Assembly: GCA_019244185.1 (NCBI GenBank)
Contig: JAFATB010000006.1
Location: forward strand, 1 to 64,000
Length of the DNA stretch: 64,000 nucleotides
From: Acidobacteriota bacterium
Lineage (GTDB): Bacteria > Acidobacteriota > Thermoanaerobaculia > Gp7-AA8
Direction of reading: 5' to 3'
Below are positions 8,147 to 46,401 of this stretch, piece by piece. The stretch's first letter is position 1. Every line of letters starts with the position of its first letter. The notes beneath the pieces were generated by a model, which saw only the letters and a list, made by a program, of their open reading frames with translations, ran no database searches and was not told the origin of the DNA. The position numbers and the translations under genes were made by a program.

Positions 8147-9355
8147 CTATTTCGTGTACACCGTTACTTCCGCGCTCGCGCCGACCGGCACGCGATCGGC
8201 GGCCGGTCCGGTCCACTTCACGCGCACGGGCACGCGCTGCACGACCTTCACGTAGTTGCCGCTGGCGTTGTCGGGCGGGAGCAGCGAGAACGTCGAGCCG
8301 GTGCCGCCGGAGAGGCTCTCCAGCGTGCCGTCGAACTCGCCGTCGACGGCGTCGACCTTCACTTTCGCGCGCTGGCCCGCGCGCATGGCGCGCACCTGCG
8401 TCTCCTTGAAGTTCGCGATGACGTAGGTCTGCAGCGGCACGAGCTGGACGATTGGCTGGCCCGCGGTGACGAGCGAGCCGGCGTGCACGGTGAGCTTTGA
8501 CGCGATGCCGTCGCGCGGCGCGGTGATGCGCGCGTACGAGAGGTTGAGCTGCGCGGCGGCGAGCGCGGCGCGTGCGGTGTCGACGCGCGCGTGTGCGAGC
8601 GCGTCGTCCGCTTCCGCGGCGCGGATCTGCGCGTCGACGGGCGCGGTCTGCTGCAGCCGGCCCACCGCCTGCTGCACGTCCGCCTCGGCCTGCTGCTTCG
8701 ACTGTTCCGCCGATGTCAGGTGCGCGCGCGCCTGCGCGAGCTCGGCCTGCGCGGCCTCGTTCGCGGCGCGCGCGGCGTCGACCTGCGACTTCGAGATGTC
8801 GCCCTTGCCGCCAAGCTCCTGCGCGCGCGACCAGTCGTTGCGCGCCTTGTCCGCGTTCGCCTGCGCGCGCGAGACGGCGGCGCGCGCTTCCGCGATCGCG
8901 CTCGACTGCGTGCCCACCTTCTGCTGCGAGCTCTGTACGGCTGCCTGCGCGGTGGTGAGGCCGCCGCGCGCGGTGGCGCGGGCGACGGAGAGGCGCGCGT
9001 CCGCGGCGTCCGCCTGCGCGCTCGCCGTGGCCAGCTCGCTCGTGGCCTGCTGCACCTTCACCTGCGCGTCGCGCGCGTCGAGCTGCACGAGCAGGTCGCC
9101 GGCGCGGACGTGCTGGTTGTCGTGCACGAACACTTGTTCGACCTGGCCGGGGATGCGCGGCGCGACGGCCACGACGTCCGCGGCCACCTGCGCGTCATCG
9201 GTCGATTCTTTGTTCGACGTCATCAGCGCATACGCGCCGTACGCGATGAGCAGCAGCACGACCACTGCCCCGAGAATCATGAACATCCGGCGCGCGCGTG
9301 CCTTCGGCAGCACGGGATCCGGACGGGTAGTTGAGCTCTGTTCCGACATCGTCAC
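8147..9355 (-). CDS. emrA: EmrA/HlyD-family membrane fusion protein
   Basis: STDDAQV, ANFKETQ and FSLLPPDNASGNYVKVVQRVPV motifs. Confidence 0.92.
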   Translation of the reverse strand: MTMSEQSSTTRPDPVLPKARARRMFMILGAVVVLLLIAYGAYALMTSNKESTDDAQVAADVVAVAPRIPGQVEQVFVHDNQHVRAGDLLVQLDARDAQVKVQQATSELATASAQADAADARLSVARATARGGLTTAQAAVQSSQQKVGTQSSAIAEARAAVSRAQANADKARNDWSRAQELGGKGDISKSQVDAARAANEAAQAELAQARAHLTSAEQSKQQAEADVQQAVGRLQQTAPVDAQIRAAEADDALAHARVDTARAALAAAQLNLSYARITAPRDGIASKLTVHAGSLVTAGQPIVQLVPLQTYVIANFKETQVRAMRAGQRAKVKVDAVDGEFDGTLESLSGGTGSTFSLLPPDNASGNYVKVVQRVPVRVKWTGPAADRVPVGASAEVTVYTK

Positions 9356-15500: not shown

Positions 15501-15612
15501 GCAGATCGCTGACCGGCAGCAGCCGGTACGCCATCGCACCGAACAACAGGATTGCGATCATGACCAGCGTGGTCATGACGGGGCGGCGGATGAAAGGCGC
15601 GGAAAGGTTCAT
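12505..15612 (-). CDS. RND efflux permease (AcrB/MdtB/MdtC family)
   Basis: MNLSAPFIRRPV, LPNVDFPTI, GFVVDDAIVMLEN, KKNGIMMVDF and RFRPIMMTT motifs. Confidence 0.95.
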   Translation of the reverse strand: MNLSAPFIRRPVMTTLVMIAILLFGAMAYRLLPVSDLPNVDFPTINVNASLPGASPETMAASVATPLERQFSTIAGLDSMTSSSSLGQTSITLQFALSRPLDAAAQDVQAAIAAAQRSLPPNMPTPPSYNKVNPADQPVFYIALTSDTLPLYQLDEYAETQMGQRLSTVPGVAQVIVYGAQKYAVRIQLDPQQLATRGIGVDEVVTAVRNSNVNLPTGVMNGPYQAATITANGQLLKADDYRPITVAYRNGAPVRLEQLGRILDSVENDKTAAWFRDKRGVILAVQKQPGTNAVEVSNAIRKLLPRFRQELPASINLDIHRDRADSIRESVTDVKFTLMLTLFLVILVIFLFLRNVSATVIPSLALPMSLVGTFAVMYLFDYSLDNLSLMALTLSVGFVVDDAIVMLENIVRHMEQGEKPFEAAVKGSQEIGFTILSMTISLAAVFIPILFMGGILGRLFHEFAVTIGASILVSGFVSLTLTPMLSARFIRPHHGRHGRFYEMSERFFERMLAVYASGLRFVLRHKRATMLVSLAILIATGFLFVQVPKGFLPSEDQGQIYLQLEGPQGISYEDMVRHQLAVARIVQKEPSVAAFFSAVGIRGGAYNSGIISVRLVPRKERDISADELIAKLRPMVNAVPGVRVYLQNPPPIRLGGRSSQALYQYTLQGPNTDELYASASKMTDKMRTLPGFVDVASDLQIRNPQVSVAIDRDRAASYGLTANQIEDALFSAYATRQVSTMYAPTNSYQVIMEAAPQYQQDIGSLSLLYVRAASGELVPLSTFAKLLPSVGPLTVNHSGQTPSVTISFNLKPGVSLGDAVNQINGVARTTLPATISTSFQGTAQAFQSSMQGLGMLLIVAIAVIYMVLGVLYESFIHPLTILSALPFAGFGALLTLLVFHVDLSIYAFVGIIMLVGLVKKNGIMMVDFAVEAEKQGLEPERAIYDACLIRFRPIMMTTMAALMGTLPIALGLGAGAESRRPLGLAVVGGLLFSQTLTLYVTPVFYVYMDKLRSKRGKEESHVHMEAAEEEVLAPV

Positions 15613-16685
15613 CCCTTGATCTCCACCTTGCTCTTCGGCGTGAGGCGCAGCTGGCCGTCGGTGACGACGGTCTCGCCGGCGTTGAGGCCGTCGGCGACGA
15701 TCGTCTCCTGACCGATGGTGCGGAAGACGGAGATCTGCCGCATCTCGACCGCGTTGCCGGGTTTGACGACGTAGACGAACTGCCCGTTCTGCCCGATCTG
15801 CACGGCACGAGCCGGCACCACGATCGCGGACGGCCGGTCCTCGATCGTCATCGACACGGTGACGAACTGCCCCGGCCAAAGCGCGCGGTCGTGATTGTCG
15901 AAGAGCGCCTTGAGCGTGATCGTGCCGGTCGACGTGTCGACGGCGTTGTCGACGAACGAGAGCTTGCCGTGCGCGGTGGCCGCGCCACCCGACTGCGGCG
16001 AGGCGGCGACGGCGAACGTGGCCGCGCCGCGCGCGCGGATCTGCGCGAGCTGGTCCTGCGGAATCGCGAACTGCACGTACACCGGCTCGACCTGATTGAT
16101 GACGACGAGCGGCGTCGTGTCGTTCGCGTGCACGAGGTTGCCCGCGTGCACCTGCAGGCTGCCGGTGCGTCCGCTGAGCGGCGCGCGGATCGTGCAGTAC
16201 GAGAGCTGCAGCCGCGCGTTCTCGACCGCGGCGCGATCGGCCGCGACGACGGCGCGCGCGGCTTCCGCGCCCGACGCGATGCGGTCGTACTCTTCCTTCG
16301 TCACGTAGTCCTTCTTCACGAGATCCGCGTAGCGCGCGGCATTCGACTCGCCGTTGCGCAGCTGCGCCTCGTCGCGCGCGAGGTTGGCCTGCGCCTGCTG
16401 CATCGCCGCGACGTACGGACGCGAGTCGATCGTGAAGAGCACCTGTCCCTTGGTCACGTCGTCGCCTTCATGGAAGGAGACGTTGAGCAGCTGCCCTTCG
16501 ACGAGCGCGCGCACGGCGACGGTCGACAGCGGCTGCACGTTGCCGATGGCCTGGATGCCGAGGGGCATGTCCTTCTGCTGGACGGTGGCCACGGTGACGG
16601 GCACCGCCTCTTCGCGCGGCGCTTCCTTCTTTTCGGCGCAGGCGACGGCGGCAATGAGCGAGAGAAGCAAGAGACTGCGTTTCAT
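15609..16685 (-). CDS. RND periplasmic adaptor (MdtA-like lipoprotein)
   Basis: MKRSLLLLSLIAAVAC lipobox; IRAPLSGRTG, DNAVDTSTGTI and LWPGQFV motifs. Confidence 0.92.
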   Translation of the reverse strand: MKRSLLLLSLIAAVACAEKKEAPREEAVPVTVATVQQKDMPLGIQAIGNVQPLSTVAVRALVEGQLLNVSFHEGDDVTKGQVLFTIDSRPYVAAMQQAQANLARDEAQLRNGESNAARYADLVKKDYVTKEEYDRIASGAEAARAVVAADRAAVENARLQLSYCTIRAPLSGRTGSLQVHAGNLVHANDTTPLVVINQVEPVYVQFAIPQDQLAQIRARGAATFAVAASPQSGGAATAHGKLSFVDNAVDTSTGTITLKALFDNHDRALWPGQFVTVSMTIEDRPSAIVVPARAVQIGQNGQFVYVVKPGNAVEMRQISVFRTIGQETIVADGLNAGETVVTDGQLRLTPKSKVEIKG

Positions 16686-18055
16686 CGATTCAACCTTCCG
16701 GTGTCGTGAGCGAGTTGTGCGAGCGAGAGGAACCAGTCGGCCCGCGACTGCACCTCTTCGGCGCGCGCGGTTTCGAGCGCGGACTGCGCGGTGAGCACGT
16801 CGACGATCGTGCCGACGCCCTCGCGGTAGCGCGCGCGGGCGACGTCCGCCGACTGCTGCGCGCTGTTGAGAAGATCGCGGCTCGTGGCCAGCCGCTGCCG
16901 CGCCGTGCGCAGCCCGTAGTAGCTGGTCCAGACGTCGAGCGAGACCTGCTGCGAGAGATCGCGCAGCTGCTCCCGCGCGAGCTCGGCCTCGAGCTCCGCC
17001 TGCCGCACGTCGTAGCGGTTCCGCCAGCCGGTGAAGAGCGGGAAGCTCAGCCCGACCGCGGCGGAGTACGGCGTCGAACGCTCGCCGCCGTTGCCGATGT
17101 TGAAACCGGTCGACGCCGACGTGACGACGCGCGGCAGAAAGCTCGAGCGGACCTCGCGGATGCGCGCGGATGCACGTTCGGCGAACGCGCGCGAGGCGGC
17201 GAGATCGGGACGCGCGCGCTGCGCCGCGTCGATGAGCACGTCGATGGCGTCGGAGACGTCGTTCGCCGGCACGTCGTTCGGCAGCTCGCCGACCTCGAAG
17301 CGCGTCGTCGGAGACACGCCCATCGCCGTCGCCAGCGCGCCTTCGATCGCGCGCAGGTTGCCTTCGATCGTGTCGTAGGTCAGCTGCGCCTGCGAGAGCG
17401 CGGTGCGCGCCTGCAGCACGTCGGCAATCGTGGCGACGCCCGCGTTGTGACGCGCTTCCGCGGCGTCGAGACTGGTCTTGCGCTCGGAGAGCGTCGCGCT
17501 CTGCGCGGCGAGCTGCGCCTTCGCGTCGAGGTACTGGTAATACGCCTGCTGCGTCTGCAGGATGACGTCCTGAATGGCCTGGTTGTGCAGGAAGTCGGAG
17601 GCAATGAGCGTCTGCCGCGCCTGCTCGACGCGCGCGTCGCGCCCGCCGAAGTCGAACAGCAGATACGTGAGCGCGAGCGACGGGCCGATCGACGTCTGCG
17701 AGCTCCCGCCCGCCGCCTTCACGCGCGCGACGCTCGCATCGAGATCGACTTCGGGAAGCCACGCCGCCTGCTCGCTGCCGACCGCCGCTTCCGCGGCGCG
17801 CGCGGTGAGCCACGCCTCACGCGTGCGCGGGTTGTTCTCGAGCGCGATGTCGAGGACGCGCGCGAGCGTGATCGGACCGGTCGAATCCGCCGCCGTCGCA
17901 ACAACCGTCGACGGCACCGCCGGGATCGCGACGTTCTGCGTCACGGTCGGCGTCCACGGCTTCGACGGCGCGTCGGACGTCTTCACGTCCGGCTGGGCCG
18001 TGCGGCACGCGGTGACGGCAAACAGCAGCGCGAAGAACGCGCAAATTCGTTTCAT
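16682..18055 (-). CDS. TolC-family outer membrane lipoprotein
   Basis: AVTAC lipobox; ALENNP, LFDFGGR and GVGTIVDVL OEP motifs. Confidence 0.9.
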   Translation of the reverse strand: MKRICAFFALLFAVTACRTAQPDVKTSDAPSKPWTPTVTQNVAIPAVPSTVVATAADSTGPITLARVLDIALENNPRTREAWLTARAAEAAVGSEQAAWLPEVDLDASVARVKAAGGSSQTSIGPSLALTYLLFDFGGRDARVEQARQTLIASDFLHNQAIQDVILQTQQAYYQYLDAKAQLAAQSATLSERKTSLDAAEARHNAGVATIADVLQARTALSQAQLTYDTIEGNLRAIEGALATAMGVSPTTRFEVGELPNDVPANDVSDAIDVLIDAAQRARPDLAASRAFAERASARIREVRSSFLPRVVTSASTGFNIGNGGERSTPYSAAVGLSFPLFTGWRNRYDVRQAELEAELAREQLRDLSQQVSLDVWTSYYGLRTARQRLATSRDLLNSAQQSADVARARYREGVGTIVDVLTAQSALETARAEEVQSRADWFLSLAQLAHDTGRLNR

Positions 18056-18058
18056 CAG

Positions 18059-18700
18059 TTACTTCCTGCTCCTCGTTTTCGGTTCGGCTCCCTCGGCCGC
18101 GAGACCATGCAGCAAGAGGTCGGCGATGAGTCGCGCGTCGTCTTCCACCGGCGCGCTCTCGTCCGCGAGCAGCCGCTGGTTGACCATCGCCACGACGGCG
18201 TCGACGAACATCGCCGCGACCTTGCGGCTCTCCGTCGGACGGAACACGCCCTCCGCGATGCCGTCATCGATGACCTTCGTCACGCCGTTCAGCAGCTTGC
18301 GATAGCGGTCGTGACGGTAGCGGCTGCCGTGCGTGCGCATCACCTCGCGCTCGTACAGCAGGATGCGGAAGAGGTCGCGGTTCTCGTCAAAGTACGTGAG
18401 GTAGCGCAGCGCGTACGCCTCGAGCTTCTTCGGCGCCGGCGCGTTGCCGGAGAGGATCTGGTCGATCCGCGCGGTGAGCGGCTCGAGCGACGACTCTTTC
18501 ACCGAGTCGAGCAGTTCCTGCTTGTCGCGGTAGTGGAGGTAGACCGTGCCCTTCGCGATGCCGACTTCCTGCGCGACGCGCTCCATGGTCACGCTGTCGA
18601 GCCCCTCGCGGCACATCAGCCGGACGACGGCCGCCTGGATGCTTTGTCGCTTGAACTCCTGCCACAGCTTCGGCTCTTCTTTGCGTGCGGGTCTTGCCAT
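18059..18700 (-). CDS. TetR/AcrR-family regulator
   Basis: VTMERVAQEVGIAKGTVYLHYRDKQEL HTH. Confidence 0.93.
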   Translation of the reverse strand: MARPARKEEPKLWQEFKRQSIQAAVVRLMCREGLDSVTMERVAQEVGIAKGTVYLHYRDKQELLDSVKESSLEPLTARIDQILSGNAPAPKKLEAYALRYLTYFDENRDLFRILLYEREVMRTHGSRYRHDRYRKLLNGVTKVIDDGIAEGVFRPTESRKVAAMFVDAVVAMVNQRLLADESAPVEDDARLIADLLLHGLAAEGAEPKTRSRK

Positions 18701-25313: not shown

Positions 25314-25331
25314 ATGTCAAAAATTTAACAT
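25314..25331. promoter_or_regulatory. Putative BlaI-type operator (copy 1)
   Basis: Imperfect palindrome atgtcaaaaatttaacat overlapping the blaI start; TTGACA at 25286-25291. Confidence 0.7.
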
Positions 25332-25710
25332 GGCCCGCCAGGAACTGAGCCGCCGCGAGCGGCAGATTCTCGACGTCATCTACCGCCTCGAACGCGCGAC
25401 CGCCTCGGACGTGCTGGAGCGCCTCGACGACGCCCCCACCTACACGACGGTGCGCGGCCTGCTGCGCGTGCTCGAAGGCAAGGGCCACATCCGCCACGAG
25501 GACGAGAACGGCCGCTACGTCTACTACCCGACCGTTGCCAAGCAGCGCGCCGCAAAGTCGGCCATCAAGCACGTCGTGAGCACGTTCTTCGACGGCTCGC
25601 CCTCAGAGGCGCTCGCGGCCTTGCTCGGAGGCGAGCGGAGCTTGAACGCGCAGGAGCTCGAGCGGCTGGCAAAGGTGGTGGACGAGGCGCGGCGGAAGGA
25701 GAGGGCGTGA
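25330..25710 (+). CDS. BlaI/MecI/CopY-family repressor
   Basis: LSRRERQILDV, TYTTVR.LLR.LE.KG and FFDGS motifs. Confidence 0.93.
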   Translation: MARQELSRRERQILDVIYRLERATASDVLERLDDAPTYTTVRGLLRVLEGKGHIRHEDENGRYVYYPTVAKQRAAKSAIKHVVSTFFDGSPSEALAALLGGERSLNAQELERLAKVVDEARRKERA

Positions 25711-25834
25711 GGGGGCGGGGGCTGGCCGCGACGCTGACGATGGCGGGGAGGGCGCCGCGCGCGGAGACGTTCGCGCTGTCCGCGCCGGCGTCGCACGCGC
25801 CGGCATCACCCGACGCGCGGCGGAAGGAGACGGC

Positions 25835-27424
25835 GTGAGCGTGAGCCTCATCGCGAGTGCACTGGCGAGCCGCGGCGCGAGCGTCCTCGCGAGCCTGCTC
25901 GCGAGCGCGAGCGCCAACGCGCTGCTCGCGGCGACGCTGAAGGCGACGCTCGCGTTCGCCGCGGCACTCGCGTTCGTGCGGCTCGCGACGCGCGCGTCTG
26001 CCGCGACGCGACACGCGATGCTCGCGGCCGCGCAGCTGGCGGCGCTGACGATGCCGCTCCTCGCGTATGTTGTCCCGCCGCTGACAGTGGCGTGGAGCGC
26101 GCCGCGCGCCGAGACGTTCGCGCTGCCCGCGCCGGCGTCGCAGACACCGGCATCAACCGCGAGCGCCGCACCCGCAGTCGCGCCGCAGCGGCGCGTGCCC
26201 GTGAACCCGCTCCTCGCATGCTGGCTCGCTGGCATCGCGATCGTCGCGACGGCGCGTCTGCCCTCGCTGCAGCGCGCCGCGCGCATCGCGCGCGGCGCGC
26301 CGGCGTGGGAGGCGGAGTGGGAGCCGGCGCAGACGGAACACCGCGGCCCGCGCGTCTACCTCACCGACGCCATCGACCAGCCGGTCACGCTCGGCTCGCG
26401 CATCCTCCTCCCCACCGCCGCCCTCGACTGGCATCCGGCGCAGCTGCGTGCGGTGCTGCTGCACGAGCGCGCGCACGTGGCGCGGCGCGACTCGCTCCTC
26501 GGCCTCGTCAGCGACTTCGCCTGCGCGGTCTACTGGTTCCATCCGCTCGCATGGCTCGTTGCACGACGGGCGCGGCTCGAGCGCGAACAGGCGTGCGATG
26601 AAGCGGTGCTCGCGCAGGGCGTGCGCCGCACCGACTACGCCGCCGCGCTCCTCGACATCGCGCGCAATGCCGCGCGCGCCGCGCACGGAATGGCGATGGC
26701 CGAACGCCCGCAGCTCGAGGTGCGCATCCGCGCCATCGTCGCTGGCGCGACGCCGCATCCGCGCCGCGGCGCACGCGCGGCCGTGGTGGTCGCCGCCGTC
26801 GCCGCCGCGCCGTTTCTCGCCGCGCTCACGCCGCTTGCCATCGCGCGTCCGTCCGCCGGCGAGCCCGATCTCCTCGGCGACGCGATCGCCTCGCCGCGCA
26901 GCGAACGCCTCGGCGCACCCGCGGTGAGCGTCGTCGCGAGCGGCCCCGACGCCGCGCTCATCGCCACTCTGCAGCAGTACGCCGCGCAGCCGCCGCGCGA
27001 CGAGACCGATCTCGTCGCCGACCGCGCGCGCTGGGCGCTCGGCCGCGTCCGCGACGGCGAGCTCGTACGCCCGATGCTCGACGCGCTCGACGATGCGGAC
27101 TGGCGCGTGCGCGCGTACGCCGCATGGACGCTCGCCATCGCCGGCGAGCGCCGCGCCACGCCCGCGCTCGTCACGCAGCTGCGCGATCCCGTCTGGCGCA
27201 TGCGCGCCATGGCCGCGTACGCGCTCGCGGAGCTCGCCGATCCCGCCGCGCACGACGCGATGCAACGGGCGCTCGCCGATCCGGCGTGGCAGGTGCGCAC
27301 GTGCGCCGTCCGCTATCTCGCGGCGCTCCACGATCCCGCCGACCGCGCCCTGCTCGACGCCATGCGCGCCGACCGCCACATCGCCGTCCGCACTGCCGCG
27401 GAGCAAGCCTTGAATCGCTCGTGA
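25835..27424 (+). CDS. M56 (BlaR1-like) metallopeptidase with C-terminal HEAT repeats
   Basis: LLHERAHV.R.D, YWFHPL.W and EREQACDE motifs; D..WRVRA.AA.AL HEAT repeats. Confidence 0.9.
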   Translation: MSVSLIASALASRGASVLASLLASASANALLAATLKATLAFAAALAFVRLATRASAATRHAMLAAAQLAALTMPLLAYVVPPLTVAWSAPRAETFALPAPASQTPASTASAAPAVAPQRRVPVNPLLACWLAGIAIVATARLPSLQRAARIARGAPAWEAEWEPAQTEHRGPRVYLTDAIDQPVTLGSRILLPTAALDWHPAQLRAVLLHERAHVARRDSLLGLVSDFACAVYWFHPLAWLVARRARLEREQACDEAVLAQGVRRTDYAAALLDIARNAARAAHGMAMAERPQLEVRIRAIVAGATPHPRRGARAAVVVAAVAAAPFLAALTPLAIARPSAGEPDLLGDAIASPRSERLGAPAVSVVASGPDAALIATLQQYAAQPPRDETDLVADRARWALGRVRDGELVRPMLDALDDADWRVRAYAAWTLAIAGERRATPALVTQLRDPVWRMRAMAAYALAELADPAAHDAMQRALADPAWQVRTCAVRYLAALHDPADRALLDAMRADRHIAVRTAAEQALNRS

Positions 27425-27441
27425 TGCTTTTCAGCCCGTCG

Positions 27442-27459
27442 ATGTCAAATTTTTAACAC
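27442..27459. promoter_or_regulatory. Putative BlaI-type operator (copy 2)
   Basis: atgtcaaatttttaacac is 15/18 identical to copy 1 and lies upstream of the aggag RBS of the serine hydrolase. Confidence 0.7.
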
Positions 27460-27474
27460 CACCAGGAGCCACGC

Positions 27475-28989
27475 ATGAAAGCTTTCGCCTGCAGCATCCT
27501 CATCGTCCTCACCGCCGCGACCGCGGCGTTCGCGCAAACACCCGCGTGGCCGGCCGAGCTCGACGCCTACATCGAGAAGGCGCGCACCGACTGGGAAGTG
27601 CCGGGGCTCTCCGTCACCGTCGTGCGCGACGGCAAGCTCCTCGTCGCGAAAGGCTACGGCGTGCGCACGCTCGGCCGGCCGGAGCGCGTCGACGAGAACA
27701 CGATGTTCGACATCGCGTCGGTCTCGAAATCGTTCACCGCCGCCGCCATCGCCACGCTCGTCGACGAAGGGAAGATGCACTGGGACGATCCGGTGCGGCG
27801 CTGGCTGCCGCAGGTCGAATTCTCCGATCCGTACCGCACCGCGAACGTCACCATCCGCGATCTCCTCTGCCACCGCGTCGGCGTCGAGCAGGGCAACTTC
27901 CTCTTCCGCTTCACCGGCTACACGACCGACGAAGTGCTGCGGCGCATGCGCTATCTCAAAGAGAAAGACGCCTTCCGCACGACGATGATCTACTCGAACG
28001 TCGGCTACACCGCCGCCGGCGAAGCAGCGGCCGCCGCCGCGGGCATGCCGTTCACCGAACTGCTGCGCACGCGTCTCCTCGAGCCGCTCGGCATGACCGC
28101 TTCGACGATCGGCGTCCCGCACACCGCGTCGCCGAATCACGCGTCGCCGCACGGCCCCGTCGACGGCATCCAGCGACCGATCGATCACACGAAAGCGCTG
28201 AACATCCTCCCCGCGGACGCGATCAACTCGACGCCGCTCGACATCGCGAAGTGGATGCTCTTCCAGCTCGGCGACGGCACCTGGAACGGCAAAACCCTCA
28301 TCTCCAAAGCATCGATGACCCAGATGCACGAGCCGCAGAACATCATCGCTACGACGCCCGACATGCGCGCGAACCGCGGCGTGCAGTTCTTCGCCGCGTA
28401 CGCGCTCGGCTGGCAGGTGATGGACTACCGCGGCCACAAGCTCATCTGGCACAGCGGCTCCGGCGACGGCATGCCGGTCTACATGGCGCTCCTCCCCGAC
28501 GAGCACATCGGCGTCATGGTGATGATCAACACCTGGAACGCGCCGGTGCTGCACGGCACGATCGCCGCGAAGATCTTCGACGTGCTGCTCGGTCTGCCGA
28601 GCACCGGCGGCGACACGGCGGCGGAAGCAGCCGCGTATCGCAAACGCACCGCGCAAGCCGACGCGGAACGCCGCGCGCTCGACACGCCGCCCGCGCCGAT
28701 CGCGAAGCCGTCGCGCCCGCTCGACGCCTACGCCGGCACGTACGTCGATCCGCTGTACGGCGAGATGCACGTGACGCTCGTGAACGGCGCGCTCGTGCTG
28801 CAGTTCGCGCGCGGCGAACGCGCCGATCTGAAGCCGTGGCAATACGACACGTTCCGGGTCGCGTGGCGCGATCGCGTGTACGAGGACTTCGACACCTTCG
28901 CCACGTTCTCGCTCGACGCGCACGGCACGCCGCACCGTTTCGACATGCAGCTCAACCGCGACAACGTCGAGGCGACGCGGTCGCAATAG
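27475..28989 (+). CDS. Secreted serine hydrolase, beta-lactamase/AmpC-like, with DUF3471-like C-terminal domain
   Basis: IASVSKSF (SxxK), YSN and HSG motifs; YAGTY.DPLYG C-terminal domain; signal peptide. Confidence 0.9.
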   Translation: MKAFACSILIVLTAATAAFAQTPAWPAELDAYIEKARTDWEVPGLSVTVVRDGKLLVAKGYGVRTLGRPERVDENTMFDIASVSKSFTAAAIATLVDEGKMHWDDPVRRWLPQVEFSDPYRTANVTIRDLLCHRVGVEQGNFLFRFTGYTTDEVLRRMRYLKEKDAFRTTMIYSNVGYTAAGEAAAAAAGMPFTELLRTRLLEPLGMTASTIGVPHTASPNHASPHGPVDGIQRPIDHTKALNILPADAINSTPLDIAKWMLFQLGDGTWNGKTLISKASMTQMHEPQNIIATTPDMRANRGVQFFAAYALGWQVMDYRGHKLIWHSGSGDGMPVYMALLPDEHIGVMVMINTWNAPVLHGTIAAKIFDVLLGLPSTGGDTAAEAAAYRKRTAQADAERRALDTPPAPIAKPSRPLDAYAGTYVDPLYGEMHVTLVNGALVLQFARGERADLKPWQYDTFRVAWRDRVYEDFDTFATFSLDAHGTPHRFDMQLNRDNVEATRSQ

Positions 28990-38573: not shown

Positions 38574-39062
38574 ATGAACAACCGCGAATACTTTCTCAAG
38601 CGCTGGGACGGCGAGCAGCGCGCATTCTCCGAAGTGCTGCGCGCCGTGCCGAACGATCAGCTGTCGTACACGCCGCACGAGCGGTCGACGAAGGCGGGCG
38701 ACCTCGCCTGGCAGATCGCACTCGAGCAGCGTCTGCTCATCGATCTGCTCGACAAGCAGAAGATGGTGTGGGAGTCGCTGCCGCGGCCGGAATCGATCGA
38801 CGGCATCGTCGCCGCGTACGACGAGGCCACGAACACGCTGCGCGACAAGCTGAAACACTTCGACGATTCGAAGTGGGAACTGCCGGCGAAGTTCATGTTC
38901 GGCGAGCACGTCGCCGGCGAGTCGACCGTGCAGGACTTCGCGTGGGGCTTCCTCTTCGACCTCGTGCATCACCGCGGACAGCTCACGGCGTACTTGCGTC
39001 CGATGGGCGCGAAGGTGCCGTCGATCTACGGTCCGTCCGGGGACTCGGGCGCCGGCAGTTAG
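38574..39062 (+). CDS. DinB/YfiT family protein
   Basis: HHRGQL..YLR.MG.KVPSIYGPS. Confidence 0.9.
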   Translation: MNNREYFLKRWDGEQRAFSEVLRAVPNDQLSYTPHERSTKAGDLAWQIALEQRLLIDLLDKQKMVWESLPRPESIDGIVAAYDEATNTLRDKLKHFDDSKWELPAKFMFGEHVAGESTVQDFAWGFLFDLVHHRGQLTAYLRPMGAKVPSIYGPSGDSGAGS

Positions 39063-39927: not shown

Positions 39928-41727
39928 TCAGACGAGTTTCGCTTCGAGCTCCGCCCACCGCGCGTACAGCCGCTCGACCTCCGCGTGCGCCGCCTGCAGC
40001 TCCGCGTAGCGCGTCTGCAGCGCGCCGGCGTCGGCGGCGATCGACGGATCTTCCGCGCGCCGCTGCGCTTCTTCGACGCGCGCTTCGGCGGCGAGCACCG
40101 TTTCCTCCATCGCATCGAACTCGCGCTGTTCGAGGTACGAGAGGCGCTTCGTCTTCGGCGCGGACGGCTTCGGCGCCGCCGTTGACGGTGTTAACGATGC
40201 GGCGGGAGTGTCGCGCTGCGCGGCCTCCCACTGCGGGAAATCGGCGAAGAACTCCGCGTTGCCGCGGCCGTCGAGCGCGAGAAGGCGCGTCGACACGCGG
40301 TCGAGCAAGTAACGGTCGTGCGTCACGAGGACGAGCGCGCCGGGAAAATCGAGCAGCGATTCCTCGAGCACGTCGAGCGTCGGGATGTCGAGATCGTTCG
40401 TCGGCTCGTCCATCACGAGGAGGTCCGCCGGCTGCAGCATCAGTCGCGCGAGCACGATGCGTGCTTTCTCGCCGCCGGAGAGCCGCGACACCGCGGTCTC
40501 GAGCTGCTCGCTGCGAAAGAGAAACCGCTTCGCCCAGCCGGCGACGTGAATGGGTCGGTCGCGATAGATGACCGAGTCGCCTTCCGGTGCGAGCGCGCGT
40601 TTCAGCGTGACATTCGGATCGAGGCTCTCGCGGTTCTGTTCAAAGTACACGACGCGCAGGCCGTCGGCGCGCTCGATGCTGCCCGCGTCGGGCGCGAGCG
40701 TGCCGACGATCATCCGCAGCAGCGTCGTCTTGCCGGAACCGTTCGGGCCGAGGATGCCGAGGCGCGCGCCGGGCGTGAGGAGCAGATCGAGGTTGCGCAC
40801 GATCGGCTGGTCGCCCATCGTCTTCGTGAGCCCGCGCGCGGACCAGAGGCGTTTCGTCTTGCGCTGCGAGGCGGTGAAGTCGATCTCGGTGTTGAACGAC
40901 TGCGCACGGTCGCGCCCTTCGGCCAGCTCGTCGATCAGCTTCTCCGCGTTCTGGATGCGCGCTTTCGCTTTCGTCGTGCGCGCTTTCGCACCGCGGCGCA
41001 GCCACTCCATCTCGCGCCGCACGAGGTTCGCGAGCGTCTCCTGATACGCGGCCTCGTTGCGCAGCACCTCGTCGCGCTTCTCGAGGAGATCGCTGTAGGT
41101 GCCGTCAACCGCGAGCAGGCCGCCGGCGTACGCGCGATTCAGCTCGAGCATCCGCTTGGTCACGTTCTCGAGAAAGTAGCGGTCGTGGCTGACGACGACG
41201 AACGCCTTCGGATCGCTGCCGAGGAGCGATTCGAGCCAGAGGATGGCATCAACGTCGAGATGGTTCGTCGGCTCATCGAGGAGGAGCACGTCCGGCTCGC
41301 GCACGAGCTCGCGCGCGATGGCGAGGCGTTTGCGCCAGCCGCCGGAGAGCGTCTCCGTGCGGATCGCGCGATCGGTGAAACCGGCGCGGCCGAGCGCGAG
41401 CGCGACGCGCGCGAATTTCTCGTGCTCGTCGAGACTCGTGTCCGATGACAGCGCGTCGAGCAGCACGTCTTCCGCGGAACGTCCCGGCGCGAACACCGGA
41501 TCCTGCGGCACGTAGCCGACGCGCACGCCCTTGCGCAGCGCGCGCGTGCCGGAGTCGGCGTCTTCCGCGCCCGCGAGGATCTTCAGCAGCGTCGACTTCC
41601 CCGAGCCGTTCGGGCCGACGAGTCCGACGTGATCGCCTTCGAAGAGCGTGAAGGAGAGATTCTCGAAGAGCGGCCGCGCGCCGTAGGCTTTCGTGAGACC
41701 GTCGGCGGAAAGAAGAACGGGCGGCAT
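39928..41727 (-). CDS. uup: ABC-F ATPase, Uup-like
   Basis: Two ABC cassettes, WLRRGAKARTTKAKARI linker and KRLSYLEQRE...LYARWAELE C-terminal domain. Confidence 0.9.
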   Translation of the reverse strand: MPPVLLSADGLTKAYGARPLFENLSFTLFEGDHVGLVGPNGSGKSTLLKILAGAEDADSGTRALRKGVRVGYVPQDPVFAPGRSAEDVLLDALSSDTSLDEHEKFARVALALGRAGFTDRAIRTETLSGGWRKRLAIARELVREPDVLLLDEPTNHLDVDAILWLESLLGSDPKAFVVVSHDRYFLENVTKRMLELNRAYAGGLLAVDGTYSDLLEKRDEVLRNEAAYQETLANLVRREMEWLRRGAKARTTKAKARIQNAEKLIDELAEGRDRAQSFNTEIDFTASQRKTKRLWSARGLTKTMGDQPIVRNLDLLLTPGARLGILGPNGSGKTTLLRMIVGTLAPDAGSIERADGLRVVYFEQNRESLDPNVTLKRALAPEGDSVIYRDRPIHVAGWAKRFLFRSEQLETAVSRLSGGEKARIVLARLMLQPADLLVMDEPTNDLDIPTLDVLEESLLDFPGALVLVTHDRYLLDRVSTRLLALDGRGNAEFFADFPQWEAAQRDTPAASLTPSTAAPKPSAPKTKRLSYLEQREFDAMEETVLAAEARVEEAQRRAEDPSIAADAGALQTRYAELQAAHAEVERLYARWAELEAKLV

Positions 41728-41781
41728 GGAAGGCGGAAGATACCAGCGAACGAAACCGGCGCAGCCCGTGTTTAGGCGTGC

Positions 41782-42399
41782 ATGAAGAACTCCTGGACCG
41801 GCGGAATGGCCGCCACGCTCGAGGAGAACGGCGAGGCGACTCTGGCCGTGGCGGTGCATCGCTGCGAGCCCGGCGCGCTGGAGCGGCTGATCGACCGCTT
41901 CGAAGGCGCGCTGTACGGCTACGCGTACGGCATCCTGCAGAACACCTTCGACGCGCAGGAAGTCGTACAGGACGCGATGCTGCGCGCGCACCGGGCGCTG
42001 ACGCGGCAATACGACGAGGCGCGCTGCGCGGCGCTGGCGCTCCGGCCGTGGCTGTTCAAGATGGTGCGCAACCTCTGTCTCAACAAGCGCCGCTCGAAAA
42101 CGCGCGCGCTCGAACAGCCGCTCGCGTCGTTCGACGACGACCGCCTCGGGCCGTTCGTCCGCGAGCACGGCTCCGAGCTCGAGCGGCGCGAGGACGCGGA
42201 GCTGCTGCGCGGCGCGATGGCGCGCCTCCCGGTCGAGGCGCGCGAGCTCATCGTGCTGCGATTCATGGAAGAGATGTCGTACGCCGACATCGCGAAGACC
42301 GTCGGAGCGTCCGAAGCGGCGCTGCGCGGCAAGGTGTTCCGCTCGCTCAAGCTCCTGCGGGACGCACTGGAAGAAAAAGGGGTGGCCCATGCGGTGTAG
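41782..42399 (+). CDS. ECF sigma-70 factor
   Basis: DAQEVVQD and WLFKMVRNLC (region 2); LRFMEEMSYADIA...LRGKVFR (region 4). Confidence 0.93.
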   Translation: MKNSWTGGMAATLEENGEATLAVAVHRCEPGALERLIDRFEGALYGYAYGILQNTFDAQEVVQDAMLRAHRALTRQYDEARCAALALRPWLFKMVRNLCLNKRRSKTRALEQPLASFDDDRLGPFVREHGSELERREDAELLRGAMARLPVEARELIVLRFMEEMSYADIAKTVGASEAALRGKVFRSLKLLRDALEEKGVAHAV

Positions 42400-43255
42400 A
42401 TCGGTTCTGACTCGAGTCGATGCGCTGCGCACCGGCGAGCTTCCGCCGGACGAACGCGGCGAAGTGGAGACGCACATGGAGACGTGCCGCAGCTGCAATG
42501 CGTCGGTGCACGACGTCGGTACGCTCGCGCATACCATCAAGGCGATCGCGCCAGCGCCGCCGCGCTCGTGCCGCGACGCGCTCGCGGATTCGTACGATCG
42601 CGTCGGCGAAGTGTGGGTGGCGTTCTCCGACAGCGGCCTGCGCATGCTCCATCGCGGCGGCAGCTTCGAGGAGTTCCGCGCGCTGCACGCCGAGCGCACC
42701 GGACGCACGCTCAAGTCCGCGACGCTTTCCGACAAGCTGCGCAAGCAGGTCGTCGCCGCGACGAGCGGCGAAGGCGTGGACAAGCCGCAGGTCGACTGGC
42801 GCGCGGACGCGACGCCGCTCGAGCGCGCCGTGCTGGAGACGCTGACGCGGATTCCGCGCGGCGAGGTGCGCACGTATGAATGGGTCGCGCGGCAGGTCGG
42901 ACGGCCGCGTGCGACGCGCGCCGTCGGCTCGATCTGCGCGAAGAACTCGGTGCCGTTCGTCGTGCCGTGCCACCGCGTCGTGCCGTCGACCGGCGGCGTC
43001 GGTCAGTACGCGTTCGGCAGCGCGGTGAAGCGCGACCTGCTGCGGCGCGAAGGCGTCGACGTCGACGCGCTCGACTCGCTCGCGAAACAGCGCGTCCGCT
43101 ACATCGGCTCGCGCACCACGAAGATCGTCTGCTTCCCCACGTGCAAAGACGCGCGGCGCATCCGCGAGGACAACCGCGTCCCTTTTCACGCGGCCGGCGA
43201 AGCGCTGGAGAAAGGATTCCGGCCATGTCTGCGATGCAAGCCGTTCGCGGCCTGA
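42389..43255 (+). CDS. Fusion: zf-HC2 anti-sigma domain + O6-methylguanine-DNA methyltransferase + Ada Zn-binding domain
   Basis: C....GEL...E...VE.HMETCRSC; IPRGEVRTY, RAVG and VPCHRVV; TTKIVCFPTC...GFRPCLRCKP. Confidence 0.88.
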   Translation: MRCRSVLTRVDALRTGELPPDERGEVETHMETCRSCNASVHDVGTLAHTIKAIAPAPPRSCRDALADSYDRVGEVWVAFSDSGLRMLHRGGSFEEFRALHAERTGRTLKSATLSDKLRKQVVAATSGEGVDKPQVDWRADATPLERAVLETLTRIPRGEVRTYEWVARQVGRPRATRAVGSICAKNSVPFVVPCHRVVPSTGGVGQYAFGSAVKRDLLRREGVDVDALDSLAKQRVRYIGSRTTKIVCFPTCKDARRIREDNRVPFHAAGEALEKGFRPCLRCKPFAA

Positions 43256-43866
43256 GCGTTCCCGAGATCCACGCGGTGTCGCGGCCCGCGCGCGCCTTCA
43301 CCGGCGACTTCTACTTCACGCACCGCGAAGGCGCGCGCACGTGGTTCGCCCTCGGCGACGTCGCGGGCAAAGGTCTGCCCGCCGCGATCGTGATGGCGAT
43401 GATCCAGGAGGAGCTCGAGCTGCGCATCGCGTCGTGCGCGAGCGCCGCGTGCGATCCGGCGACAACCACGCGCCGCCTCCACGAGTTCCTCGCGCCGCTG
43501 CTCCCGCGCAATCGCTTCGCCACCGCCGTCCTCGGCCATCTCGACGACGACGGCACGCTGACGATCGTGAACGCCGGCCACTGTCCGCCGCTCCTCGCCC
43601 GCGCCGACGGCCGCGTCGAGGAGCTCGGCTCCACCGGCCCGCTCCTCGGCATCCTTCCCTGCCCGCGCTGGAGCTCCGTCAAACGCCGCCTCGAACCCGG
43701 CGACGCGCTCGTGCTCTACAGCGATGGCGTGACCGAGGCCACGATCGATGGCGGCGAGGAGCTCGGGGTGGAGGGTTTGCGCGAGCGCGTCGCGCGTCGC
43801 GAGAACCTGCTCGACGGACTCGACACGCACGACGACGTGACGCTCGTCGTCGTGCGACGGCCGTGA
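43225..43866 (+). CDS. Stand-alone PP2C/SpoIIE-type phosphatase
   Basis: GDFY, GDVAGKG.PAA, NAGH, YSDGVTEA and DDVT motifs; aaagga RBS. Confidence 0.88.
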   Translation: MSAMQAVRGLSVPEIHAVSRPARAFTGDFYFTHREGARTWFALGDVAGKGLPAAIVMAMIQEELELRIASCASAACDPATTTRRLHEFLAPLLPRNRFATAVLGHLDDDGTLTIVNAGHCPPLLARADGRVEELGSTGPLLGILPCPRWSSVKRRLEPGDALVLYSDGVTEATIDGGEELGVEGLRERVARRENLLDGLDTHDDVTLVVVRRP

Positions 43867-43869
43867 GCA

Positions 43870-46401
43870 TCAGTCATAGACGAACCGTTCGTCGTCATTC
43901 GGCGTCGCACCCTTACGAACGATGACGGCGAACGGATCGACCTGCGCCAGTCCGCCGGCGAGTTGCCAAAGCGTGATGAAGAAAGCGCGACCCAGTTCCT
44001 CGCGGCGCAGCGGCGTCGCCGCAAGAATGTTGCTCGCTTCAGCCATGAGCTTTCGCTGTTGCACCGCAATGCTCTGAACGGCGTCATCGATCGCGCGGCC
44101 GGAGAGGTTGATCTGACGCATCGACTTCAATTGCCCAAGCATCCGCTCGAACGCTAGAACGACGCGCAGCGCATTGGAGACGGGGAGACGCTGCGCAGCG
44201 CCCACCTGGACCTGCGTTTTCTGATCGTCGGCACGGAAGTTCGCGTTGTCGAAGACGACCGTGGTACCGCCCGGCACCAGTCCAGTCTCACGGACGTGTT
44301 TCCATCGCAGGAACAGCAGTCCGTTGCGATCGCGGATCGTAAAGGGATTCGGCGAATCGGAGAGATATAGCGCGGTCAGGTTCTCGACGAACTGCTCCGA
44401 TGCGGTATCGACGCTTTGATTCAGGATCGTTTCGAGCTCACTTTCGCTGAAATCCAGAACGGCGCTCGCGACGAGATCTCCAAACGGCTGCTTCGATGCC
44501 GCATTGACGACCAGTTCCGTGAGCGCGGTCGTCGGTCCGGCGAGAACGCCCAGTGCGATCATCTGTTTTTCCCAGTCGGAGAGCTGCGTGCGTGTCGGCG
44601 GCGGCGTCCACCGGATGGATGCGTCCAAGCTGACATGGTCGCTGACGCGTGGGTCGCGTAGCTTATCCGCGGACGTGACGACCGCAAGCACACGCGTATC
44701 GGCCAGGAACGTGACGCTGCGCAGCGCACGCCAGCTCTTTGACCACGCTTCGATCGAAGTCCGCACGCCGAGATTGAGATCGCCCGTTGCCGTGACCTCG
44801 TAATCCCAGTCCTGCTGCAACAGTGTGCCGACTCCCGCGTTGAGACCGAACGCGGAGATGTTCAGCGACGTCTCGATACGAAGTCCACCGGAACCGGACC
44901 ACGTGGCGTCGTTCAGCGTGACACCCGCATCACCCTGCCGCGCCAGCGCGAGCGCCTCGGTGAAGTCGCCGTGCACACATTTGCGGAAGGCCGGCAGCGC
45001 AGGATCGATGGACAGATCGAGCGCCGTGGTGCGGGTATCGAAGCGCGATCGTTTATGGGCGAGCTCGATCCCGATCTTCACCTCCGCCGCGGCTTTCACG
45101 GCAGCGTTCACGCGCTCGAGCGCGCGTTGGTATCGGACGACGAGTTCCTTTACCGCATTCAACAGCGGATTGAGGTGGTGCTGGAAGTCATCGACGAGCG
45201 CGCCCGTCCGAGCGTCGATCGCATTCGTCAGCGCTTCTTTCAGTTTCGCCTTGAGATCGACACTTACACCGATCCGCGCGAGCCACTGTTGGAGCTGCGT
45301 GGTGACACTCTGGCTGTTCAGCAAGTGATTGACGGTCGCGGAGAGCTGCTGATCGAACAGCTGGTGCAGATCGCCGAAGGTCGTGAGATCGTTCTCGATC
45401 AGCTTCACGAGCGGAGCGAGCGGTGTGGTGATCTGAGAGACGACCGCGCTCGCAACTTTGTCGATGCCGGTGATTGTGACGCCGACACCGGCTTTCAGCG
45501 CGATGCCACGCGAGGACTCGCGCACTTGTACGAGTCGGACGCGAACACGGTTCGTTCCCTTGTCACGCGTCAGAAGAATGTTGAAGCTGCCGTTCACTTC
45601 CGCGTTGAAGTCGAGCGAAGCGGCAATCTTCGCCTCGGCGGTGATCGGCGCCGCAGCGAGACCGAGGGTCTTTTCGCTGACCTCGCCCGTCATCACGACC
45701 GTCTTTCCGAACGAGAGACCGCCCGACACGGCGATCGAGCCGGTGTTGTGCAGACGCACGACCTGCCCGTCTCGGAGGTGGGCGGCGTCGTACGGCAACT
45801 TGAATGCACGCACGTCATCGATGAGCGCTGTGAGCGCGGAGTCGGAGACCGCGTGCTTGAAGTAGTTGCCAACGGTGACCGACGCGTTCGCGCCGAATGC
45901 CGCCTTTCCGCTGACAACACCAATGGGGAACGACGGCACATTTCCGAGCGCGGAGACGGCGCCGTCGATCACGAACGAAAGGAATGCCTCGCTGTCTTTC
46001 TCGTACGTGATCGCGCCGTCGTCGAACAGATCGCCATCGTCGTCGCCCGCTACGGTCGCGGACGCGTTCGCGCCGAGCTCGATCGCAACGGCGTTGACGT
46101 TCAGCGTGTTGTCCACGGCGACCGGCCAGGAGAGCTTCTGCTTCGCTGCCGCACCAACGTTGCCGAGGAGGAACGTGAGCGCGGTACGGTTGTTTGCAAT
46201 GAAACTCTGAATTTGCTGCGCGTTGAGATTGAGCCGCGCAATCGCATCGGCGACCGGACCCTGCGCATTCGGATTGGCCTGGTAGGCCACCAATGCATCG
46301 AGAATGGCTTGAGGACTGTTCAGCGCCCGCAGTTCGTCCAGCAGTTTCGGGATGTCCTGGAGAAGCTGTACCGCACGGGTTCCTTGCTTGAGGATTTCCA
46401 T
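43870..46401 (-). CDS. Large hypothetical protein (843 aa), atypical codon usage
   Basis: Uninterrupted ORF with ggagg RBS, globular composition, more A/T-ending codons than neighbours and no recognisable motif. Confidence 0.75.
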   Translation of the reverse strand: MEILKQGTRAVQLLQDIPKLLDELRALNSPQAILDALVAYQANPNAQGPVADAIARLNLNAQQIQSFIANNRTALTFLLGNVGAAAKQKLSWPVAVDNTLNVNAVAIELGANASATVAGDDDGDLFDDGAITYEKDSEAFLSFVIDGAVSALGNVPSFPIGVVSGKAAFGANASVTVGNYFKHAVSDSALTALIDDVRAFKLPYDAAHLRDGQVVRLHNTGSIAVSGGLSFGKTVVMTGEVSEKTLGLAAAPITAEAKIAASLDFNAEVNGSFNILLTRDKGTNRVRVRLVQVRESSRGIALKAGVGVTITGIDKVASAVVSQITTPLAPLVKLIENDLTTFGDLHQLFDQQLSATVNHLLNSQSVTTQLQQWLARIGVSVDLKAKLKEALTNAIDARTGALVDDFQHHLNPLLNAVKELVVRYQRALERVNAAVKAAAEVKIGIELAHKRSRFDTRTTALDLSIDPALPAFRKCVHGDFTEALALARQGDAGVTLNDATWSGSGGLRIETSLNISAFGLNAGVGTLLQQDWDYEVTATGDLNLGVRTSIEAWSKSWRALRSVTFLADTRVLAVVTSADKLRDPRVSDHVSLDASIRWTPPPTRTQLSDWEKQMIALGVLAGPTTALTELVVNAASKQPFGDLVASAVLDFSESELETILNQSVDTASEQFVENLTALYLSDSPNPFTIRDRNGLLFLRWKHVRETGLVPGGTTVVFDNANFRADDQKTQVQVGAAQRLPVSNALRVVLAFERMLGQLKSMRQINLSGRAIDDAVQSIAVQQRKLMAEASNILAATPLRREELGRAFFITLWQLAGGLAQVDPFAVIVRKGATPNDDERFVYD

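Follow-up and report, generated by a model that had tools for sequence, protein, structure and literature searches.

The adaptive response to DNA alkylation, in which a repair protein is turned into a regulator by its own methylation, is known to us only in its Ada/AraC form. The pairing of an extracytoplasmic function (ECF) sigma factor with an anti-sigma factor, by comparison, is the commonest stress-signaling device of bacteria. In a 64,000-nucleotide stretch of an Acidobacteriota genome of the Thermoanaerobaculia (GenBank assembly GCA_019244185.1, contig JAFATB010000006.1, positions 1 to 64,000; hereafter the window), the same two methyl-acceptor modules that occur in Ada are joined to an ECF sigma/anti-sigma pair. 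Three overlapping genes, all on the + strand and present as a preliminary description of this DNA had placed them, encode an ECF sigma factor (41782-42399), a fusion protein carrying both acceptor modules (42389-43255), and a PP2C-type phosphatase (43225-43866). Judged from sequence, this arrangement resembles an adaptive response of the Ada kind that operates by way of an ECF sigma factor and its anti-sigma partner, and its genomic context relates it to the catalogued groups ECF122 and ECF203.

Both of these groups come from the 2021 ECF re-classification (Casas-Pastor et al., NAR; PMC7826278), where their descriptions stand in the supplement. ECF122 is described there as wholly actinobacterial (Actinobacteria 100%), with “no putative AS factors”, a 6-O-methylguanine methyltransferase encoded at position +1, and the predicted promoter CTCAC/CGTCTAC. 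ECF203 is likewise given as Actinobacteria 100% and without an anti-sigma factor, with an O6-methylguanine methyltransferase (MGMT) at +1 and Ada_Zn_binding, TetR, and MFS proteins in its context; the main text of the paper is silent on both. A 2022 review places ECF122 under “unknown mechanism” in the section concerned (PMC8999054), and the supplementary table of a survey of class I anti-sigma factors pairs ECF122 and ECF203 sigma factors with other proteins and contains no MGMT term (PMC7406223). The preliminary description had left it open whether the architecture is already catalogued. The pairing of a sigma gene with an MGMT gene is indeed already known, as ECF122 and ECF203, while the parts of the literature covered by our search yielded no description of the ZAS (zinc-binding anti-sigma) fusion found here, nor of the MGMT partner as an anti-sigma factor.

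Several loci related to the window, from Actinomadura, Nonomuraea, and Streptosporangium, match the arrangement of these two groups, in which MGMT lies at +1 (with Ada_Zn_binding also in the ECF203 context), and the Actinomadura loci fit ECF203, for which the consulted part of the survey table gives an Actinomadura member (PMC7406223). As far as can be judged from the group descriptions, by which the comparison was made, ECF122 and ECF203 are confined to Actinobacteria and have no anti-sigma factor, whereas the partner in the window carries a ZAS domain.

The sigma factor itself is a 205-aa protein of the ECF (group 4) sigma-70 type. Its sole domains are Sigma70_r2 (residues 36-108, E 1.3e-11) and Sigma70_r4_2 (residues 140-192, E 7.8e-11), that is, regions 2 and 4 only, and it scores 81.8 bits against TIGR02937, for which the cut-off is 42.9. 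The N-terminal sequence MKNSWTGG is kept in the three related loci L001-L003. No equivalog cut-off in NCBIfam is reached by the sigma factor, the fusion protein, or the phosphatase. The end of the sigma gene overlaps the start of the fusion gene by 11 nt.

The fusion gene specifies 288 aa arranged as three modules, and the zinc and active-site motifs listed in the preliminary description were all located where it had placed them. The N-terminal module (residues 1-66; 42389-42586) is a class I anti-sigma domain of the ZAS type with ligands C3, H29, C33, and C36; zf-HC2 is matched over residues 3-36 (E 1.7e-6, 28.5 bits against a Pfam cut-off of 22.2), with HMETCRSC at residues 29-36 (42473-42496) and C3 as the upstream ligand. 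The central module (residues 67-226; 42587-43066) is a two-domain O6-alkylguanine-DNA alkyltransferase of the Ogt/MGMT type, recognized by DNA_binding_1 (residues 144-223, E 3.2e-28), by TIGR00589 (ogt) in NCBIfam, and by structural comparison with Foldseek. Its active site, PCHR, occupies residues 193-196 (42965-42976), and the spacing of Y163, R177, N186, C194, and E221 equals that of Y114, R128, N137, C145, and E172 in human AGT. The C-terminal module (residues 238-288 plus stop codon; 43100-43255) is an Ada-type Cys4 zinc domain with CFPTC at residues 248-252 (43130-43144) and CLRC at residues 280-283 (43226-43237), the ligands being C248, C252, C280, and C283. Ada_Zn_binding covers residues 238-285 (E 7.9e-12), and phmmer aligns residues 240-286 to residues 30-75 of N-Ada (1adn; E 7.5e-7). 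The sequence thus gives strong support to an alkyltransferase that is complete and predicted to be catalytically intact.

An AlphaFold2 model of the fusion protein, built from an 81-row alignment, has a mean pLDDT of 92.6 and a pTM of 0.77. Five N-terminal helices (residues 3-7, 10-15, 20-32, 34-53, and 59-65) are followed in the model by a strand-rich MGMT N-domain, a helical C-domain, and a small C-terminal domain. The best Foldseek match in the PDB is the C-terminal domain of E. coli Ada (1sfe; E 1.8e-10, TM 0.76 by target, 168 columns), followed by mycobacterial, archaeal, and human alkyltransferases and, lower, by N-Ada (1u8b, E 7e-3). The phmmer ranking agrees, such that 1sfe is the best match in both sequence and fold. 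No anti-sigma structures were reported by this whole-protein search, in which the MGMT domain dominates the ranking.

The fusion protein therefore shares with E. coli Ada both methyl-acceptor modules, the Cys4 zinc domain and the PCHR alkyltransferase, and, on the reading proposed below, self-methylation would in both cases be the signal for making more of the same protein. The order of the modules is nevertheless reversed relative to Ada, with MGMT first and the zinc domain at the C terminus, and the Pfam scan of the fusion protein gave no match to HTH_AraC or HTH_18. No transmembrane segment is evident, the highest 19-residue Kyte-Doolittle mean being 0.78; on both of these absences the preliminary description was borne out. 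Because there is no AraC-type helix-turn-helix and the zinc domain is C-terminal, the fusion is not an Ada regulator, even though it may rely on the same chemistry. It would act by releasing a sigma factor from the ZAS domain rather than by binding a promoter directly.

Comparisons with the cytoplasmic ZAS anti-sigma factors (the RsiW N-domain with SigW, RslA with SigL, RsrA with SigR, and ChrR with SigE) are equally instructive. The fusion shares with these proteins the C...HxxxCxxC ligands, a helical anti-sigma domain (ASD), and a gene located directly after that of the sigma factor; the 26-residue spacing from C3 to H29 is that of RsrA. A profile made from 11 ZAS-type N-termini matches RsiW in the PDB at E 1.1e-6, with residues 1-69 set against residues 1-70, as well as RslA (E 1.4e-4) and DdvA (E 7e-4); matches of this profile to RsrA (0.3) and ChrR (0.7) are not significant. 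The anti-sigma identity that had been proposed for the N-terminus thus holds, as a class I ZAS domain that lies above the zf-HC2 cut-off. Where the known ZAS proteins carry a cupin, a membrane segment, or no sensor or output part whatever, the fusion has a DNA-repair enzyme that bears two suicide acceptor sites.

As in class I complexes, the model sandwiches the ZAS domain between regions 2 and 4 of the sigma factor. The complex was predicted from the sigma factor (49 rows, consisting of the window sequence and 48 of 51 neighbor sigma factors of 170-240 aa) and residues 1-70 of the fusion (20 rows), and the preliminary description's suggestion of sigma-ZAS binding is matched by a predicted contact with an ipSAE of 0.71 (individual runs 0.69, 0.73, and 0.71), against 0.02 for the best control. 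The runs share at least 90% of contacts, the partner pLDDT is at least 82, and the model passes a mark that 116 of 157 solved complexes and 2 of 215 mismatched pairs also attain. The modeled interface comprises sigma residues 33-70 (region 2) and 135-193 (region 4) together with ZAS residues 7-17 and 43-65. Because sigma/ZAS complexes of this kind have been solved, the result speaks for likeness to class I complexes and is not proof that this particular copy binds. It is nonetheless strongly supported that the operon encodes an ECF sigma factor together with a cytoplasmic protein whose N-terminal ZAS domain belongs to the type that grips sigma factors at regions 2 and 4.

The three-module architecture is well conserved. 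A word-indexed protein search returned 2480 proteins at E <= 0.001, and the best 120 of these are 67-100% identical to the fusion, measure 259-294 aa, and all carry PF01035 and PF02805, with PF13490 precomputed for 58. The only names among these 120 are “methylated-DNA--protein-cysteine S-methyltransferase” and “O-6-methylguanine DNA methyltransferase”, and the organisms, where given, are metagenome-assembled genomes of Thermoanaerobaculia. The public gene call of the fusion itself (P0001) is 259 aa long, 90% of the query, and presumably starts at M30, which would remove C3 as well as H29. We prefer the longer start, at 42389, because homologs align from residue 1 and retain both ligands.

An exhaustive HMMER search of 50%-identity representatives extended the comparison, with 98 proteins at E <= 1e-30; 150 relatives were listed and 60 of them scanned with Pfam. 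MGMT followed by a C-terminal Ada_Zn_binding domain is present in 54 of the 60 and zf-HC2 in nine, and two (P0224 and P0231) are Ada proteins of the classical type, in which the zinc domain is N-terminal and an AraC helix-turn-helix is present. By pattern match, HxxxCxxC lies near the N-terminus in 30 of the 150, several of these being fragments. On sequence the relatives appear to fall into two classes, namely class A, of roughly 290-310 aa with a ZAS domain, and class B, of roughly 240-270 aa with an N-terminus of 30-45 residues that lacks zinc ligands. Across 20 aligned class A proteins, 31-88% identical to that of the window, C3, H29, C33, C36, P193-C194-H195-R196, C248, C252, C280, C283, Y163, R177, N186, and E221 are invariant in all 20, and this invariance over such a range of identity argues that the motifs of the fusion are not there by chance. 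The four ZAS ligands are invariant also in 11 of 11 ZAS-type proteins, and PCHR and the four Ada-type cysteines in 81 of 81 proteins from both classes.

A few relatives depart from these plans. P0206 has a Sigma70_r2 fragment ahead of MGMT-AdaZn, which may be a gene-call artifact, and P0256 has a SAM-methyltransferase domain at that position. The genes at loci L067 and L069 carry an N-terminal extension of about 90 aa on an MGMT that has neither an AdaZn domain nor a sigma neighbor. PCH[RK] is kept at 79 of the 80 loci described below, the exception being L047 (5887-6675), a sigma-linked MGMT-AdaZn copy that keeps the Ada Cys4 pattern; loss of PCH[RK] with retention of Cys4 was noted for protein P0179 as well.

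Gene order, too, ties the fusion to the sigma factor. A scan of one genome per species found at least 596 relatives, of which the best 80 loci were kept, so that the set represents close and middling relatives of the fusion rather than MGMT genes generally. Open reading frames (ORFs) of at least 60 aa were called in these loci and searched with the three window proteins, and MGMT starts were refined against the upstream stop codon; in four loci, which lie at contig ends, the sequence starts at or within the MGMT gene, leaving 76 evaluable. An ECF sigma ORF lies directly upstream of the MGMT gene on the same strand in 69 of the 76. In 41 of these 69 the two genes overlap by 4 nt, and the larger gaps are 54 nt (L079), 85 nt (L015), 201 nt (L063), and 211 nt (L062). 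Among the 70 upstream ORFs, counting that of the window, Pfam detects Sigma70_r4_2 in 69 and Sigma70_r2 in 68. The loci come from at least eight phyla, with Acidobacteriota, Actinomycetota, Chloroflexota, Dormibacterota, Eremiobacterota, Methylomirabilota/Rokubacteria, Binatota, and Entotheonella represented. Conservation of the sigma-MGMT gene pair across many phyla, mostly with predicted translational coupling, is thus strongly supported. At four loci, three of them from Dormibacterota, a second, divergent ECF sigma gene is situated directly upstream of the MGMT-linked one (L051, L053, and L056, at about 4.7-5.5 kb, and L054, at 20-583).

These data bear on the possibility that the two genes are simply co-expressed, with a sigma factor that is activated in some other way driving a repair enzyme whose N-terminal helices would be an appended structural element or the degenerate remains of an anti-sigma domain, with no control over the sigma factor. 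The cataloguing of ECF122 and ECF203, in their supplementary descriptions, without an anti-sigma factor fits such a scheme (PMC7826278), as does the ZAS-less class, in which no anti-sigma domain is detectable. It accounts poorly for the window, where the ZAS domain passes its Pfam cut-off, matches solved anti-sigma factors, retains invariant ligands, and is placed by the model on regions 2 and 4 of the sigma factor, the controls scoring close to zero. Gene overlaps of 4-11 nt, moreover, are typical of stoichiometric partners. We consider mere co-expression distinctly unlikely.

Linkage also varies with the modules that the MGMT protein carries. A sigma gene precedes all six genes encoding both ZAS and Ada-type modules and all five, from Eremiobacterota, encoding ZAS without the Ada-type module; the preliminary description had made the claim depend on co-occurrence of fusion and sigma gene, and the two are found together in these 11 of 11 ZAS-bearing loci. 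The sigma gene is likewise present for 57 of 58 genes with the Ada-type module and no ZAS domain (the exception being L042), and for one of seven with neither. Because linkage tracks MGMT-AdaZn even where ZAS is absent and is rare for MGMT without either module, the repair modules, rather than the ZAS zinc site, seem to carry the signal; among the comparative arguments for this, we regard it as the strongest. An opposing view is that the ZAS zinc-thiolate is itself the sensor, as in RsrA, with oxidants or soft electrophiles, including SN2 methylating agents, attacking C3, C33, or C36, and with MGMT and the Ada-type domain as fused repair cargo. The invariance of the ZAS ligands in the 20 class A and 11 ZAS-type proteins would suit a sensor of this kind, and the consulted parts of the class I survey report an enrichment of zinc motifs in cytoplasmic ASDs and connect it with redox sensing (PMC7406223). 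A pure thiol sensor, on the other hand, would not need two acceptor sites that are invariant in 81 of 81 proteins, nor would it lead one to expect a sigma gene ahead of 57 of the 58 MGMT-AdaZn genes that lack ZAS. A sensory ZAS site seems to us unlikely.

Additional genes near some of the sigma-MGMT pairs were counted in favor of the alkylation-sensing reading, since they too belong to alkylation repair. An AlkB-like oxygenase (PF09859) is encoded just downstream of the pair in two Pseudonocardiales loci, L005 (7018-8217) and L047 (6624-7382), with E values of 2e-71 and 9e-80. A second MGMT-AdaZn paralog directly follows the sigma-linked copy in L061 (6920-7678) and L006 (6624-7550), and in L061 it is the first copy that carries the ZAS domain. 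In each of these pairs, one paralog may have become the sensor and the other the enzyme.

Upstream of the operon is a candidate ECF-type autoregulatory promoter (41746-41772, + strand), consisting of a -35 element, GCGAAC(G), a variable 13-nt spacer, and a -10 element, CCGTGTT. GCGAACG (41746-41752) and C.GTGTT (41766-41772) are invariant among the upstream regions of the window and the related loci L001-L004, in which the flanking sequences cannot be aligned. In these five Acidobacteriota loci the -10 block reads C(C/T)GTGTT and begins 13 nt after GCGAACG, so that an AAC-type -35 and a CGT-type -10, as expected of ECF autoregulation, are predicted in five of five. The full motif has a single zero-mismatch match in the 64 kb, which is the operon's own site. 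The promoter that the preliminary description had suggested at 41748-41772 is hence a conserved element, unique in the window. Each of L001-L004 has one copy of a looser form immediately ahead of the sigma gene; the 76 other loci have none. A single match with two mismatches, at 28814, was dismissed as within chance, for which shuffled sequences average 1.67 matches. The -10 block ends 9 nt ahead of the sigma ATG, and the mRNA is for this reason probably leaderless or nearly so. The ECF122 promoter (CTCAC...CGTCTAC, as given in the group description) differs from that of the window and was not found in the 80 loci.

The ways in which these parts could work together are suggested by what is known of each. 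ZAS and other class I domains block the core-binding surfaces of sigma factors. MGMT and N-Ada take up methyl groups irreversibly; methylation of the N-Ada zinc thiolate alters its electrostatics, and alkylated alkyltransferases are structurally destabilized. On balance, we lean toward the view that the operon is an autoregulated sigma/anti-sigma module that senses DNA alkylation, with the suicide repair protein itself as the anti-sigma factor. In undamaged cells, the unmethylated fusion would sequester the sigma factor. Irreversible transfer of a methyl group from O6-methylguanine to Cys194, from methylphosphotriesters to the Cys248 zinc site, or both, would inactivate the holder, conceivably through a conformational change, through destabilization and proteolysis of the alkylated protein, or through its retention on DNA. 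The freed sigma factor would then transcribe its own operon and so replace the spent repair protein, and once the damage is gone, fresh unmethylated fusion would recapture it. Such a system would measure the consumption of the repair protein. Methylation-driven release of the sigma factor is, in our estimation, plausible.

A broader form of this proposal is more tentative, and we hold it to be possible but somewhat short of probable. Consumption of both methyl-acceptor cysteines would free the sigma factor in loci of at least eight phyla, forming a damage-counting switch that needs no diffusible ligand, and the “orphan” groups ECF122 and ECF203 would be explained by an MGMT protein that acts as an anti-sigma factor while keeping only the last sigma-contacting helix. 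The class B N-terminus is where this helix would have to reside. MAFFT sets that segment opposite window residues ~44-66, and hhalign places it in the same register against the ZAS-type N-terminus, as a weak match (probability 6%, E 0.006, 23 columns). A profile of the class B N-terminus gave no match to solved anti-sigma factors. With the hhalign probability at that level and no such match, its identification as an anti-sigma remnant was set aside and is kept as a lead.

Several observations weigh against the alkylation-sensing reading. The most serious is that the ZAS-less N-terminus cannot, on sequence, be shown to be an anti-sigma remnant, and the 57 sigma-linked loci without ZAS ligands are the majority. 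The role of sensor might, moreover, fall to the ZAS zinc site itself. The favorable complex model may reflect the predictor's memory of solved sigma/ZAS complexes. A search for a regulon found no second copy of the promoter in the 64-kb window, and neither AlkA nor AlkB was found by Pfam among 42 further window proteins. Our literature search found no experimental test of the alkylation/sigma idea or of any member of the family. Finally, the MGMT-linked sigma factors do not form one clade in a quickly built tree. In this tree of 79 rows (quick search, midpoint root, 11 outgroup rows, with the partial sigma factors of L032 and L048 left out), the window sigma factor falls in a clade of six, from Acidobacteriota and Chloroflexia, all with ZAS+Ada partners (SH-aLRT 98). 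A separate clade of 37 rows (95) holds the actinobacterial and many of the Chloroflexota MGMT-linked sigma factors, which sets the window apart from the groups to which ECF122 and ECF203 would correspond. The 11 unlinked sigma factors fall among the remaining linked ones, and the tree thus gave no support to a single family of all MGMT-linked sigma factors.

If sensing of alkylation through the fusion is correct, the operon would represent a new class of ECF input, a direct read-out of DNA lesions by way of enzyme consumption. It would also supply a mechanism for two catalogued ECF groups that are given as “mechanism unknown” in the sources consulted, and synthetic biology would gain a lesion-responsive switch that is both compact and orthogonal. 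The version with a ZAS domain offers the most tractable starting point, since the part that would bind the sigma factor can be recognized and modeled.

The third gene of the operon encodes a stand-alone phosphatase of the PP2C/SpoIIE family (SpoIIE Pfam E 1.1e-38; 4.2e-39 over residues 36-212). Its ORF is listed from 42880, and an ATG at 43225 is preceded by GGAGAAAGG. The most likely start is this ATG, with 43234 as the alternative, giving a protein of ~213 aa that consists of the catalytic domain alone (43225-43866). The overlap with the 3′ end of the fusion gene is 31 nt, or 22 nt with the start at 43234. Like RsbU, RsbP, and SpoIIE, the protein has a PP2C/SpoIIE catalytic domain; unlike them, it has no sensor domain, it has no STAS or kinase partner in the window, and it is not conserved with the module. 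A homolog directly follows the fusion gene in two of the 80 loci, namely the two nearest relatives, L001 (70% identity) and L002 (64%), and is absent downstream of the other 78, including the ZAS-type loci L003, L004, L059, and L061. In L003 and L004 no same-strand ORF follows the fusion gene. A third PP2C match, in L074, lies ~3 kb upstream of an MGMT gene without an adjacent sigma gene and is unrelated. The phosphatase is a lineage-specific add-on of this Thermoanaerobaculia lineage.

The gene overlap shared by the window, L001, and L002 could also be accommodated by partner switching, in which the phosphatase would dephosphorylate a regulator, an anti-anti-sigma factor, or the sigma factor as the real switch, with alkylation playing no part in signaling. 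The Pfam scan of the 42 further window proteins revealed no STAS domain, no HATPase_c or RsbW-type kinase, and no Ser/Thr kinase, and the phosphatase gene is missing from nearly all related loci. With its partners absent from the window and the phosphatase not conserved, this scheme is highly improbable and was rejected. The role of tuner that the preliminary description had tentatively given to the phosphatase is, as a general one, not supported either.

Elsewhere among the related loci, the genes downstream of the pair are varied. Pfam scans of 39 of 51 candidate downstream ORFs identified an EamA transporter in 10 loci, LigD in L028, and unrelated enzymes in others, with 17 giving no Pfam match. 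On the other side of the operon in the window, where the G+C content ranges from 62 to 73%, the upstream neighbor is an ABC-F ATPase gene that runs in the opposite direction; its start codon is complementary to 41725-41727, and 54 nt separate it from the sigma gene. A DinB/YfiT-family protein is encoded ~2.7 kb upstream of the operon (38574-39062, + strand), and no link between the two was found.

Downstream of the operon and convergent with the phosphatase gene is an ORF of 843 aa (43870-46401, - strand) that has no match in Pfam or NCBIfam and falls in the lowest-GC stretch of the window (0.619 at 44-46 kb). In the ESM Atlas, it groups with unnamed clusters of hypothetical proteins of 750-790 aa, mostly from Myxococcota and Acidobacteriota (feature score 0.95, structure TM 0.60). 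Farther away, consecutive genes at 25330-28989 (+ strand) encode a BlaI-type repressor, a BlaR1/M56 peptidase with HEAT repeats, and a serine beta-lactamase-family protein with DUF3471, which together resemble a sensing unit of the BlaI/BlaR type accompanied by an esterase or beta-lactamase-fold gene. An efflux cluster occupies 8147-18700 (- strand), comprising an HlyD-type adaptor, an MFS pump, an outer-membrane factor, an AcrB-type RND pump, a second outer-membrane factor, and a TetR regulator.

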